Source of the DNA: a virus
Lineage: Duplodnaviria > Heunggongvirae > Uroviricota > Caudoviricetes
Strand: one strand, 5' to 3'
Virus record (IMG/VR): IMGVR_UViG_2585427731_000006
Length of the DNA stretch: 4,220 bases
The notes beneath the pieces are model-generated. The model did no database searches. It was not told the origin of the DNA and saw only the letters and a list, made by a program, of their open reading frames with translations. Positions within the stretch are counted from its first letter, which is position 1, and each line of letters starts with the position of its first letter. The translations under genes were made by a program, and so were the position numbers. Shown one piece after another: positions 1-4,220 of the stretch.

Positions 1-456
1 AAATGGCCCGAAATTCAGGCAGAGATGCGCATCTGGAAAAAACGTCGCGAAGGTGAACGCAAGGAAACCGGAAAATACACGTCTGTTGTTGATCTCGCCC
101 GCGCCAGAGCCAATCAACAGCACACTGAAAATTCAACAGGAAAAATCAACCCGGTCATTGCTGCCATTCATCGCGAATACAAGCAGACATGGAAAACACT
201 GGATGACGAACTGGCCTACGCTCTCTGGCCTGGTGATGTGGATGCCGGAAACATTGACGGCAGCATCCATCGCTGGGCAAAAAAAGAAGTTATCGACAAC
301 GACCGCGAAGACTGGAAGCGTATCTCGGCATCAATGCGCAAACAGCCTGATGCCCTTCGCTACGACCGCCAAACTATTTTTGGCCTTGTCCGTGAACGTC
401 CGATCGACATTCACAAAGACCCCGTAGCACTGAACAAATACATTACGAATACCTGA
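1..456 (+). CDS. hypothetical prophage protein, 5'-partial (frame open to the window edge)
   Basis: Frame 1 is open from nt 1 to TGA 454-456; the ORF track starts at the first ATG (25) but there is no upstream stop, so the gene probably begins outside the window. Composition is protein-like (mixed charged/hydrophobic, e.g. ...IHRWAKKEVIDNDREDWKRI...), whereas the overlapping ORF 53..427 is S/T/L-rich and looks like an alternate-frame artefact. I recognise no family motif. Confidence 0.5.
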   Translation, partial: KWPEIQAEMRIWKKRREGERKETGKYTSVVDLARARANQQHTENSTGKINPVIAAIHREYKQTWKTLDDELAYALWPGDVDAGNIDGSIHRWAKKEVIDNDREDWKRISASMRKQPDALRYDRQTIFGLVRERPIDIHKDPVALNKYITNT

Positions 457-538
457 CGACAAAGGGCGTGTTTGAGATGAAGAAACAAACCAGAGCACAA
501 CTGATACTCTCCAGTCATCAGAAACACAAACTGATGCA

Positions 539-823
539 GTGGAAACTGAGGTATCTGATATCCCAAAAAATGAAACCGCGCCGGAAGCTGAACCATCTGT
601 AGAGCGTGAGGGGCCGTTCTATTTCCTCTTCGCAGATAAGGACGGAGAAAAATACGGTCGCGCAAACAAACTTTCTGGTCTGGATAAGGCACTGGCTGCT
701 GGCGCCACTGAAATCACAAAAGAAGAATATTTCGCCCGAAAAAACGGCACATACACAGGCTCACAACAAAATACAGATACAGCTGAAGACCGAACAACCA
801 GAGCCAATAAAAGTTACCGCTGA
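539..823 (+). CDS. hypothetical acidic protein; start codon uncertain
   Basis: Frame 2 is open from 476 to TGA 821-823 and encodes a protein-like sequence (...[49 protein letters not shown]...). The only in-frame start is GTG at 539, with no obvious Shine-Dalgarno. An ATG at 477 with an upstream AAGGG sits in a different frame (frame 0, 41 codons). Net charge is mildly acidic. Confidence 0.3.
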
Positions 824-839
824 CGAAGTAAACAAAATT

Positions 840-1151
840 ATGCAGGCAGCCAATATCAGCCAGCCTGACGCCGATAAGTTGCTTGCTGCATCACGTGGTG
901 AATTTGTTGAAGGGATTAGTGACCCGAATGATCCGAAATGGGTTAAGGGGATCCAGACCCGCGATTCTGCGAACCAGAACCAGCAAGAAACGGAACAGAA
1001 CGACCAGAAAGCGGAACAAAACAGCCCAAATACGCAACAAAACGAGCCAGAAACGAAACAACCTGAACCAGTAGCGCAACAGGAACCGGAAAAGACTGCA
1101 CCGCCTGCGGTCAGACCGGCGGCGGCAACTGCCCTGATTGTGGCGCGGTGA
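840..1151 (+). CDS. hypothetical protein with a Q/E/N/P-rich low-complexity C-terminal tail
   Basis: Frame 0 ORF ending at TGA 1149-1151. The ORF track extends it to GTG 606, but the 606-800 stretch in this frame is W/basic-rich and overlaps the better-looking frame-2 ORF, so I place the start at ATG 840 (weak GAAG 11 nt upstream). Product: [25 protein letters not shown]...[41 protein letters not shown].... The stop overlaps the next start (TGATG, 1149-1153). Confidence 0.35.
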
Positions 1152-1918
1152 TGGGCGACGCAACATACCAAGAAACATTCGATGAAGAGAATCAGCCTGA
1201 AGTTCAGGAAGATGATCCGGAGGAAATGGAAGGCGCTGAACATCCACACAAGGAGAACACTGGCGGCAATCAGCATCACAATAGCGATAATGAAACTGGC
1301 GAGACGGCAGATCACCCAATTAAGGTGAACGGTCATCACGAAATCACATCCACCAGCAGGACGTGTGACCATCTAATGATCGACCTTGAAACCATGGGAA
1401 AAAATCCTGATGCCCCGATCATCTCAATAGGTGCAATATTTTTCGATCCGCAAACCGGAGATATGGGACCGGAATTTAGTAAGACTATCGATCTGGAAAC
1501 TGCTGGCGGAGTCATTGATCGGGACACCATTAAATGGTGGCTTAAGCAATCACGCGAAGCGCAATCTGCCATTATGACCGATGAAATCCCGTTAGATGAT
1601 GCACTGTTACAATTGCGGGAATTTATCGACGAAAACTCCGGTGAATTTTTTGTTCAGGTTTGGGGAAATGGAGCCAACTTCGACAACACGATTTTGCGCC
1701 GTTCATACGAACGGCAGGGGATCCCCTGCCCGTGGCGTTACTACAACGATCGCGATGTACGCACAATCGTTGAGCTGGGGAAAGCCATAGACTTCGATGC
1801 CAGAACGGCTATTCCATTCGAAGGTGAGCGCCATAATGCACTTGATGACGCCCGTTACCAGGCAAAATACGTTTCAGTTATCTGGCAAAAACTGATCCCG
1901 AGTCAGGCTGATTCTTAA
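1151..1918 (+). CDS. DEDDh-family (DnaQ-like) 3'-5' exonuclease with an acidic, His-rich N-terminal extension
   Basis: The three exonuclease motifs are present in the expected order: Exo [11 protein letters not shown] (D-x-E), Exo [15 protein letters not shown], Exo [13 protein letters not shown] (H...D). The catalytic domain is roughly 1373..1918; the first ~75 residues are acidic, low-complexity and His-rich ([34 protein letters not shown]). The ORF track starts at GTG 1148; ATG 1151 is more likely and overlaps the upstream stop, suggesting translational coupling. Confidence 0.8.
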
Positions 1919-1990: not shown

Positions 1991-2242
1991 ATGAGCGAAG
2001 TAATCATGATTGTCTCTCCCGGCAAATGGGTATCCGAAGAGCAGTTAATTGCGCTGAAAGGAATAAAAAAAGGTACGTTAAAAAAGGCCCGGGAAAAATC
2101 GTTTATGGAAGGAAGGGAATATAAGCATGTCGCTCATGACGGTATGCCATGGGATAACAGTCCATGCTTTTACAACCTGGAAGAAATTGATCGCTGGATT
2201 GAGCGCCAGGCATCAGCGAGACCAAGACGTCATCTTACTTGA
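1991..2242 (+). CDS. xis: excisionase-like recombination directionality factor (putative Xis)
   Basis: An 83-aa basic protein encoded immediately upstream of, and co-oriented with, the integrase (20-bp gap), which is the canonical xis-int arrangement of lambdoid phages. The call rests on position and size rather than on a motif I can name with certainty. Confidence 0.55.
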   Translation: MSEVIMIVSPGKWVSEEQLIALKGIKKGTLKKAREKSFMEGREYKHVAHDGMPWDNSPCFYNLEEIDRWIERQASARPRRHLT

Positions 2243-2261: not shown

Positions 2262-3365
2262 ATGAGAGAAGTTGAAATGAAATATCCGACAGGCGTGGAA
2301 AACCATGGAGGGAAATTACGTATCTGGTTTGTTTATAAAGGCGTAAGAGTCAGGGAAAATCTGGGGGTTCCTGACACAGCAAAAAACAGGCGCGTTGCAG
2401 GTGAACTACGCTCCTCTGTTTGTTACGCAATAAAAACTGGTGTTTTCGACTATGCAAAACAGTTTCCCTCCTCACGCAATCTGGAAAAATTTGGTGAGGC
2501 CCGACAAGATTTAACCATAAAAGAACTGGCTGAAAAATTTCTGGCACTGAAAGAAACTGAAGTCGCCAAAACATCACTCAACACATACCGTGCCGTCATC
2601 AAAAATATCCTGAGCATAATCGGTGAAAAAAATCTTGCCTCATCGATTAATAAAGAAAAATTACTGGAGGTTCGTAAAGAGCTACTGACTGGATACCAGA
2701 TCCCCAAAAGTAACTATATTGTTACACAACCAGGGAGATCGGCTGTAACTGTAAATAATTACATGACAAATCTTAACGCCGTGTTCCAGTTTGGTGTTGA
2801 TAACGGTTACCTGGCAGATAATCCGTTTAAGGGGATCTCGCCATTAAAGGAATCAAGAACCATTCCGGATCCTCTTTCGCGGGAGGAATTTATCCGTCTT
2901 ATCGATGCGTGCAGAAATCAGCAAGCAAAAAATTTATGGTGTGTTTCTGTTTATACTGGCGTTCGCCCTGGTGAGCTGTGTGCACTTGGATGGGAGGACA
3001 TAGATCTGAAAAATGGAACAATGATGATCAGGAGAAATTTAGCAAAAGACCGTTTCACGGTACCAAAAACACAGGCGGGAACCAATCGGGTCATTCATCT
3101 TATTAAGCCAGCAATCGACGCTCTCCGGAGTCAGATGACATTAACGAGACTGAGCAAAGAGCATATCATTGATGTTCACCTCAGAGAGTATGGCAGAACA
3201 GAAAAACAAAAATGCACCTTTGTTTTTCAACCTGAAGTGTCAGCGAGAGTAAACAATTATGGTGACCATTTTACCGTTGACTCAATAAGGCAGATGTGGG
3301 ACGCAGCGATAAAACGTGCCGGACTCCGCCATCGAAAATCATATCAGTCGAGACATACTTATTGA
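2262..3365 (+). CDS. int: phage integrase (tyrosine recombinase), C-terminally truncated by IS3 insertion; likely non-functional
   Basis: N-terminus resembles the lambdoid arm-binding domain (KYPTGVENHGGKLRIWFVYKGVRVRENLG). The catalytic-domain box I Arg is present (YTGVRPGELCALGWEDIDLKNG). The ORF ends ...HRKSYQSRHTY and its TGA stop (3363-3365) is supplied by the first bases of the IS3 terminus, so the expected downstream His and the nucleophilic Tyr are missing. The start may be ATG 2277 (MKYPTGVE) rather than 2262. Confidence 0.85.
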   Translation: MREVEMKYPTGVENHGGKLRIWFVYKGVRVRENLGVPDTAKNRRVAGELRSSVCYAIKTGVFDYAKQFPSSRNLEKFGEARQDLTIKELAEKFLALKETEVAKTSLNTYRAVIKNILSIIGEKNLASSINKEKLLEVRKELLTGYQIPKSNYIVTQPGRSAVTVNNYMTNLNAVFQFGVDNGYLADNPFKGISPLKESRTIPDPLSREEFIRLIDACRNQQAKNLWCVSVYTGVRPGELCALGWEDIDLKNGTMMIRRNLAKDRFTVPKTQAGTNRVIHLIKPAIDALRSQMTLTRLSKEHIIDVHLREYGRTEKQKCTFVFQPEVSARVNNYGDHFTVDSIRQMWDAAIKRAGLRHRKSYQSRHTY

Positions 3366-3402
3366 TCTTACCCAGCAATAGTGGACACGCGGCTAAGTGA
3401 GT
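3363..3402. repeat. IS3 left terminal inverted repeat (IRL), about 40 bp
   Basis: The IS end begins with 5'-TG at 3363, directly abutting the integrase reading frame. The exact IR length was not verified because the right end is outside the window. Confidence 0.6.
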
Positions 3403-3427
3403 AAACTCTCAGTCAGAGGTGACTCAC

Positions 3428-3723
3428 ATGACAAAAACAGTATCAACCAGTAAAAAACCCCGTAAACAGCATTCGCCTGAATTTCGCAGTGAAGCCCTGA
3501 AGCTTGCTGAACGCATCGGTGTTACTGCCGCAGCCCGTGAACTCAGCCTGTATGAATCACAGCTCTACAACTGGCGCAGTAAACAGCAAAATCAGCAGAC
3601 GTCTTCTGAACGTGAACTGGAGATGTCTACCGAGATTGCACGTCTCAAACGCCAGCTGGCAGAACGGGATGAAGAGCTGGCTATCCTCCAAAAGGCCGCG
3701 ACATACTTCGCGAAGCGCCTGAA

Positions 3724-3727
<4 letters not shown>
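3428..3727 (+). CDS. insE: IS3 OrfA (InsE), transposase N-terminal DNA-binding subunit
   Basis: ATG 3428 with GAGGTG 6 nt upstream; the 99-aa product [57 protein letters not shown]...KRLK has helix-turn-helix and leucine-zipper character. The ORF track's GTG 3419 start is probably 3 codons too long. Confidence 0.9.
3690..3694 (+). other. IS3 programmed -1 ribosomal frameshift motif A-AAA-G (orfA to orfB)
   Basis: The orfA 0-frame codon AAG is at 3692-3694 and the -1 frame codon AAA at 3691-3693; the -1 frame is the orfB frame (3724 is in the same frame as 3691). This is consistent with the known IS3-family OrfAB transframe mechanism. Confidence 0.55.

Positions 3728-4220
<493 letters not shown>

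Follow-up and report, generated by a model that had tools for sequence, protein, structure and literature searches.

An integrase reading frame in a 4,220-nt stretch of tailed-phage DNA (IMG/VR record IMGVR_UViG_2585427731_000006, hereafter the window) runs directly into the end of an insertion sequence. This raises the question of whether transposition cut the gene short and, if so, which part of the recombinase was lost and whether the prophage could still leave the chromosome by this route. A first-pass annotation, made from the letters of the window, had proposed that IS3 removed the catalytic C-terminus. We compared the window with complete Escherichia coli genomes, public scaffolds and contigs, phage records and protein family profiles.

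The integrase-IS3 junction

The plus-strand integrase frame opens with an ATG at 2262, or at 2277 in the RefSeq annotation, and closes with the residues ...KSYQSRHTY, followed immediately by TGA at 3363-3365. The first-pass annotation had read this stop as the first bases of an IS3 end. Alignment to the annotated K-12 IS3C bears this out, with window positions 3363-4220 matching from IS3C base 1 (TGATCTTACC...) and differing at 2 positions (856/858 identical). The coordinates of all features are collected in Table 1.

The element has TG...CA termini and a length of 1258 bp; its left repeat is present in the window, and the right repeat and full length were taken from relatives with the identical junction. 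In strain 504239 (locus L001), IS3 occupies 7102-8359, with inverted-repeat arms at 7102-7140 and 8321-8359 that are 72% complementary. orfA and orfB overlap in the sequence ATGA, and RefSeq annotates a programmed frameshift (-1 in the IS3 family). The full OrfB of relatives carries rve domains and matches the NCBIfam family transpos_IS3 at 339 bits, in line with the earlier naming of the element as IS3. K-12 IS3C shares the length, the termini, the 39-nt inverted repeats and the orfA/orfB arrangement with programmed frameshift, and the copy in a finished relative differs from it by 1 mismatch in 1258. IS3C likewise interrupts a gene of a cryptic prophage, renD in DLP12, at a different insertion site. 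Unlike IS3C, the window copy reads TGA in place of one TGG codon of orfB, possibly through an assembly artefact.

Table 1. Features of the window, and IS3 insertions at other sites of the same region in other strains (positions counted within the named gene; L001 is the locus of strain 504239)
Feature	Position	Strand	Remarks
Prophage exonuclease gene, 3' two-thirds	1-1918	+	Rv2179c-like 3'-5' exonuclease domain
Excisionase gene (xis), intact	1991-2242	+	83 aa; DUF1233 (PF06806, 1.6e-31); WP_000005552.1; upstream partner of int
Truncated Qin-type tyrosine integrase gene (int)	2277-3362	+	362 of 426 codons
TAT, left copy of 3-bp target-site duplication	3360-3362		codes for last residue, Tyr362; TAT/TAT in relatives
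TGA stop of truncated integrase	3363-3365	+	bases 1-3 of IS3
IS3, left 858 nt of 1258	3363-4220	+	co-oriented with int; matches K-12 IS3C; window ends inside element
IS3 left terminal inverted repeat, 39 nt	3363-3401		mapped from L001 7102-7140; same as K-12 IS3C start
IS3 orfA, insE-type	3428-3727	+	99 aa; HTH_Tnp_1; RefSeq transposase CDS start at L001 7167 corresponds to window 3428
IS3 orfB, insF-type, partial	3724-4220	+	HTH_21; TGA at 4117-4119, TGG in other copies
IS3 in int	nt 560		H9Ecoli; left flank rearranged
IS3 in int	nt 770-772		VTB97584v; duplication AAG
IS3 in int	nt 993		PSS-08-2; left flank rearranged
IS3 in int	nt 1165-1167		I4; duplication TTT; three codons before Tyr392; IS internally deleted
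IS3 in xis	nt 139-142		RCAD0514; duplication GTCG
IS3 in exonuclease gene	nt 324-326		CPEC80; duplication GCT
IS3 in ydfD	nt 131		Z1324SEC0014
IS3 in ydfD	nt 152-154		KSC1031; duplication TTA

Megablast of window positions 2262-3420 against 5426 complete E. coli genomes revealed thousands of genomes that carry the integrase with no IS at this point. In these, homology ends exactly at 3362 (query 1-1101), so the breakpoint is real and exact and not a chance resemblance. The whole query is 100% identical in six of the 5426 genomes: 504239, 67-1, TW11681, WS1933D, S1-NGR-02-A and LR883000. The right junction matches in the same six and in two megabase scaffolds (L005 and L008). In 504239, ...AGACATACTTAT precedes the element and TATGCCTGCTGG... 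follows it. In each of the five public sequences that span IS3 at the Qin locus (L001 and L005-L008), the element ends with ...GGTAGGATCA, TATGCCTGCTGG... comes next, and TAT stands on both sides.

The uninterrupted alleles (L002, L027) possess a single TAT, the intact gene reading ...AGACATACTTATGCCTGCTGG..., and in IS-free genomes the match to the right-junction query begins at position 71, with the TAT. One TAT in the empty sites and two around IS3 identify the trinucleotide at 3360-3362, the candidate of the first-pass annotation, as a true 3-bp target duplication. Past the right end of IS3, the missing 64 codons continue in frame in the relatives; integrase codons had been predicted after a second TAT beyond an element of about 1.26 kb, and they are found there in the six complete genomes. 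The window holds the first 858 nt of the 1258-nt element, and the right junction was verified in near-identical relatives; we infer the same right side in the window's own genome.

Two readings bear on these junctions. An assembly mis-join, in which a contig chimera at the repeated IS created the int-IS3 border, has only a very slight chance of being correct. A mis-join would not leave a complete 1258-bp element between the two copies of a perfect 3-bp duplication, window 2262-3420 agrees at every position with finished genomes, and six finished chromosomes and two megabase scaffolds carry the left junction, the right junction and the duplication. These observations stand against signs of a mixed consensus elsewhere in the window, the placement of the window's IS3 variant in a different IS3 copy by finished genomes, and the tendency of draft contigs of the lineage to break inside the int IS3.

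The second reading accepts the insertion and adds a later IS3-IS3 recombination, by deletion or inversion, that parted the int 5' portion from its remnant and attR in the window's genome. One draft contig (L009) continues from this left junction through IS3 into the flank (ycdT/pgaA) of a different IS3 site and lacks the TAT, so the far side can differ between genomes or assemblies; H9Ecoli and PSS-08-2 have IS3 in int next to unrelated left flanks, indicating IS3-associated rearrangements. However, the int remnant is colinear in five of the six public sequences that cross IS3 from this left junction, and L009, a 12-kb draft contig, may itself be a mis-join. We regard such a separation in the window's genome as distinctly improbable and retain the colinear insertion.

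The int::IS3 insertion is common to one clonal group of strains. Several of the junction-bearing strains come from human stool, and we take the strains to be enterotoxigenic E. coli (ETEC) from their names. Present in 6 of 5426 complete genomes, the junction together with its TAT duplication provides a clean clonal marker.

The missing catalytic end

Aligned with intact homologues, which measure 426 aa, the 362-aa product of the window lacks 64 residues, ACWSLTAGANPAFIANQMGHADAQMVFQVYGKWMSENNNAQVALLNTQLSEFAPTMPHNE(A/S)MKN. Reconstruction of the gene from window 2277-3362 and the remnant in 504239 (L001), minus IS3 and one TAT, yields a protein of 426 aa that is 2 residues off the intact allele WP_016232059.1. 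The lost segment includes His382 (in QMGH) and Tyr392 (in FQVYGKW), the latter being the sole tyrosine there; the placement of the nucleophile and a conserved histidine downstream of the break in the first-pass annotation agrees with this. The exact 362-aa product is recorded in 84 blocks of public assemblies.

Profile searches place the cut within the catalytic domain. The arm-type DNA-binding domain is complete (Pfam PF12167, Arm-DNA-bind_2; 83.2 bits, 1.3e-23, profile positions 1-65 of 65). The match of the window product to PF00589 (Phage_integrase) reaches 39.5 bits against a cut-off of 27.1 and covers only profile positions 4-134 of 172, versus 66.2 bits and positions 4-165 of 172 for the intact allele.

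The domain order, arm-binding followed by core-binding and catalytic, is that of the lambda-Int-type recombinases. Tn1549 Int (6EMY) is the closest solved structure by sequence, albeit a distant one (E = 4e-9), and the intact protein aligns its YQSRHTYACW...QMGHADAQMVFQVYGKW over the H-x-x-RHT...MGH...Y-x-H of that enzyme. The window integrase keeps the arm-binding domain, the core-binding region and, from the catalytic domain, R230 (in TGVRPGE) and Y356-x-x-R359. Tyr356 occupies the usual place of the first His in H-x-x-R, which sets the protein apart from Tn1549 Int, and the window product further lacks the active-site portion with His and Tyr. The tyrosine-recombinase active site is thus incomplete in the window frame, H382 and Y392 being coded only past IS3, in relatives; the frame is therefore a pseudogene of the tyrosine recombinase family and not a functional member.

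Tyrosine recombinases act through a covalent 3'-phosphotyrosine intermediate. Because His382 and the nucleophile Tyr392 are absent, the 362-aa protein would be unable to cleave or rejoin DNA and, from the established chemistry of the family, should not catalyse strand exchange.

Could the integrase instead end naturally at ...RHTY, with IS3 lying merely downstream of a complete gene? Such a short integrase was rejected, and its probability is negligible: the 426-aa reconstruction, the Pfam catalytic domain cut at profile position 134 of 172 and the full-length phage homologues exclude it, and all that speaks for it is the coincidence of a stop codon falling exactly at the IS end. In both E. 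coli and phage HannyBb, intact alleles have a length of 426 aa, and the remaining 64 codons stand in frame after IS3. Phage homologues at 51-61% identity, from Stx phages and a Providencia phage, align through to residues 420-426, so no natural ...RHTY ending is seen. The first-pass annotation had named full-length homologues with this ending as contrary evidence, and none occurs among 308 phage records with a match covering at least 80% of the protein.

The Qin prophage, its attachment site and its decay

The window itself carries the exonuclease 3' part, xis and int of the Qin gene set, which in relatives is ordered relE-relB-dicC-dicA-ydfA-dicB-ydfD-exonuclease-xis-int, then rspB-rspA. The locus of these relatives is the position of the K-12 cryptic prophage Qin, between ydfJ and ynfP/rspB. 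The 504239 element spans ~28 kb from ydfJ to the int remnant, includes IS2 and an IS66-family element, and contains no morphogenesis genes. The host element of the insertion is the cryptic prophage Qin, already decayed.

An 11-bp core, GAAATCCATAA, is present at both annotated ends of K-12 Qin, in attR and attL of ETEC 504239 and in attP of phage HannyBb (PP925841.1). Downstream of int, HannyBb agrees base for base with the ETEC attR arm as far as the core and with the K-12 attL arm beyond it, which defines attP, attL and attR. An IS2 copy is situated 137 bp from attL. The core is positioned ~40 bp past the int stop codon, within the ydfJ/ynfP reading frame (...LEFMDF...). The att site lies beyond IS3 and outside the window, as the first-pass annotation had supposed; its suggestion of a tRNA target did not hold. 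ARAGORN detected no tRNA in the window, nor in related loci covering 13 kb and 9 kb, and the target is ydfJ/ynfP coding sequence instead. In FDAARGOS_144, an intact int is followed, directly after the att core, by ydeR and not by ynfP/rspB.

K-12 intQ (b1579) is the same gene in the same place (dicB-ydfD-exo-xis-int next to ynfP/rspB), is 99.5% identical to window 2398-3362 and has also been inactivated by an IS. An IS2 remnant (IS2E) has cost K-12 the int 5' end, xis and most of the exonuclease gene, but not the catalytic 3' end of int; in the window, by contrast, the 5' 85% of int is preserved and a complete IS3 separates it from the catalytic 3' end. Wang et al. 2010 detected no excision of Qin in K-12 and put this down to inactive intQ (PMC3105296), and mutated intQ is common among Qin prophages (PMC6379469).

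With 426 aa, the Int of HannyBb has the same sequence as the intact chromosomal allele (L002) and is 2 residues off the protein rebuilt from the window and the L001 remnant. The phage shares the exo-xis-int order, and on either side of the core its attP arms match those of Qin attR and attL. It differs in its uninterrupted int with a single TAT and in its complete 45-kb phage genome.

Taken as a whole, the account of an IS3 insertion in Qin int with a TAT duplication, an inactive 362-aa product and lost excision is very probably correct. On this account, a 1258-bp IS3 transposed into codon 362/363 of int of this cryptic lambdoid prophage (in ydfJ, next to rspB), duplicating the 3-bp target TAT. 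The first bases of the element, TGA, end translation and leave a 362-residue protein, which keeps both DNA-binding domains (arm and core) and, from the catalytic domain, a part that includes R230 and R359. Loss of the last 64 residues, with His382 and Tyr392, would leave this protein incapable of DNA cleavage or rejoining. Int-dependent excision of Qin would then be abolished unless an identical Int were supplied in trans, a defect that the identical Int of a HannyBb-like phage could in principle complement.

Since Qin was already defective, the loss of excision represents one more step of decay and not the disabling of a live phage. As its own integrase would be unable to excise Qin in this lineage, dicB, relBE and other Qin genes would be fixed in the chromosome. 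Insertion sequences that inactivate the integrase are a textbook means by which prophages become domesticated. The event is already known in kind and visible in public annotation: RefSeq labels the locus as 'Arm DNA-binding domain-containing protein, missing C-terminus', an IS3 transposase and 'site-specific integrase, missing N-terminus', and the same gene is known as a pseudogene in K-12. Its importance extends little beyond annotation, as an ordinary prophage-decay step.

IS3 also occurs elsewhere in this region. Five independent IS3 sites were found in the 1.28-kb int (nt 560, 770-772, 993, 1084-1086 and 1165-1167), with four further sites in xis, the exonuclease gene and ydfD of different strains (Table 1). 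The search joined only co-oriented pieces, which biases these counts toward co-oriented IS3 copies. That IS3 insertion into the Qin-type excision module is recurrent and convergent, and no one-off, seems unlikely. If IS3 density were to exceed the neutral expectation in dispensable DNA, a regional IS3 target preference would be possible; an alternative cause would be selection that locks in a prophage with useful genes (dicB, relBE and cold-shock genes).

The truncated protein might also have been kept as a useful but inert binder of arm and core sites, either locking Qin in place or hindering the identical integrase of HannyBb-like phages. Its arm-binding and core-binding domains are intact, the 5' part of the frame is 100% identical across the lineage, an active phage with an identical Int exists, and int has been hit by IS3 repeatedly. 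We nevertheless consider this very improbable, given that identity inside one clonal lineage says nothing on selection and that the upstream IS3 insertions of other strains destroy these domains too, which fits neutral decay.

Variants elsewhere in the window

Between 121 and 1197 the window departs from finished genomes at 47 positions, and it does so once more at 4119. Among these differences are five single-base deletions, which split the 823-aa exonuclease gene into four ORFs, with four apparent frameshifts near 443, 476, 789-790 and 1089. For window 380-1260, the best match among complete E. coli genomes reaches 95.6%, and the stretch is thus not matched by any finished genome; the closest related locus compared is 98.9% identical to the window overall (local BLAST of fetched loci). 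Most of the differences recur in draft assemblies of this lineage into which a paralogous allele has been mixed.

A multiple alignment contained 51 differing columns within window 1-1300, and in 48 of them the symbol in the window is the alphabetically lower one (gap<A<C<G<T; binomial p = 2e-11). In the variable patches, the window shows the lower allele of the pair in 60 of 64 columns. The exonuclease-region differences bear the signature of a consensus artefact of collapsed paralogous prophage copies, probably with no biology behind them, and this pattern led us to reject the divergent stretch 380-1260 as real biology.

The single difference within IS3, G-to-A at 4119, converts a Trp codon of orfB into a stop and is present in 5 of the 5426 complete genomes. 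Four of these five carry the int::IS3 junction, but each has the variant in another of its IS3 copies; the remaining one, 214-4, is outside the junction-bearing set. The int IS3 copy of 504239 (L001) reads TGG, and the public sequences that cross the int IS3 code for full-length OrfB. The nonsense codon points to a mixed assembly of IS3 copies, and together with the upstream frameshifts it looks like an assembly artefact. In the two genomes whose context was fetched, the variant IS3 copy adjoins cysJ/queD.

Integrase, att core and prophage ends

The integrase of Escherichia phage HannyBb (45 kb genome) matches the intact chromosomal allele exactly; the phage also shares the exo-xis-int order of Qin and possesses a pinQ-like invertase. 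Its attP is composed of the Qin attR arm, GAAATCCATAA and the attL arm, placing the att core ~40 bp past the int stop, within ydfJ/ynfP. By sequence, HannyBb appears to be a live phage related to the Qin prophage.

Alignment of the window integrase to Tn1549 Int reveals a Tyr at the first-His position of the conserved H-x-x-R motif (Y356-Q-S-R359; window 3342-3353, codons 356-359). Tyr356 is likewise present in the intact int alleles, so the substitution is, on this sequence comparison, a trait of the integrase family and not a lesion.

FDAARGOS_144 (L002 5296-5400), with an intact int, carries the fimbrial genes ydeR-ydeQ-ydeP directly past the att core, replacing ynfP/rspB, with the attR arm preceding the core-ydeR join. 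This flank may mark a secondary site of integration, or else a deletion or inversion with one end at the att core. The 504239 locus (L025 7901-9330) harbors an IS2 137 bp from the attL core on the prophage side, with flanking matches overlapping by 5 bp, and an IS66-family element (ISCro1) lying deeper inside Qin than the IS2. Counting the IS3 in int with these two elements, Qin in this lineage has received at least three IS hits.

IS3 insertions in the dicB-int segment

Independent IS3 insertions in other strains (L028-L035) fall in the same prophage segment, mapped in L002 coordinates from dicB (716) to int (5296) by a search that detects co-oriented copies only. They interrupt int, xis, the exonuclease gene and ydfD, with the copy nearest the catalytic Tyr bearing an internal deletion that leaves 786 bp. 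The left flanks are unrelated in two of the int cases, which indicates IS3-associated rearrangement at these sites.

The draft contig L009 shares an identical left int::IS3 junction with the window. The right end of its IS3 runs into a MASE4/GGDEF gene followed by pgaA-pgaB, and TAT is absent there; on the K-12 map this flank belongs to a different IS3 site, on its ycdT side. The contig arose either by recombination between IS3 copies or by a mis-join during assembly.

Coordinates of att regions, IS3 insertions and window variants
Feature	Position	Detail
att region compared, HannyBb (L027)	5770-5900	
att region compared, 504239 (L001)	8546-8676	
att region compared, L004	3220-3350	
IS3 in L009	1638-2895	GCA_002206885.1, contig BDPA01000063.1
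IS3 in int	nt 560	
IS3 in int	nt 770-772	AAG
IS3 in int	nt 993	
IS3 in int	nt 1165-1167	TTT; three codons upstream of catalytic Tyr
IS3 in xis	nt 139-142	
IS3 in exonuclease	nt 324-326	
IS3 in ydfD	nt 131	
IS3 in ydfD	nt 152-154	
TGG-to-TGA (G-to-A at 4119)	window 4117-4119	stop at codon 132 of IS3 orfB, upstream of DDE domain
Exonuclease differences, window vs finished relatives	window 121-1197	clusters 396-509, 733-806, 970-1095, 1190-1197
Exonuclease single-base deletions	window near 443, 476, 789-790, 1089	

Variants of the window in the exonuclease gene and IS3 orfB

The exonuclease gene is whole in finished relatives (823 aa), but in the window five deletions of one base each, lying among clusters of substitutions, break it into four ORFs. 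This stretch has no match above 95.6% in any complete E. coli genome. In 48 of the 51 differing columns, the window's symbol is the one that comes first in alphabetical order (gap<A<C<G<T), and most of its variants recur in draft assemblies mixing in a paralogous allele. The pattern is most likely a consensus artefact of collapsed paralogues rather than real pseudogenization.

The orfB TGA variant, which if true would leave the window's IS3 copy unable to produce its own transposase, occurs in five of 5,426 complete genomes, four of them having the int::IS3 junction. All four carry the variant elsewhere in the genome and not at int, adjoining cysJ/queD in the two with context retrieved. The IS3 copy in int of 504239 (L001) reads TGG at this codon, and other public sequences spanning the int IS3 encode full-length OrfB. 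The TGA in the window probably reflects a mixed assembly of IS3 copies.
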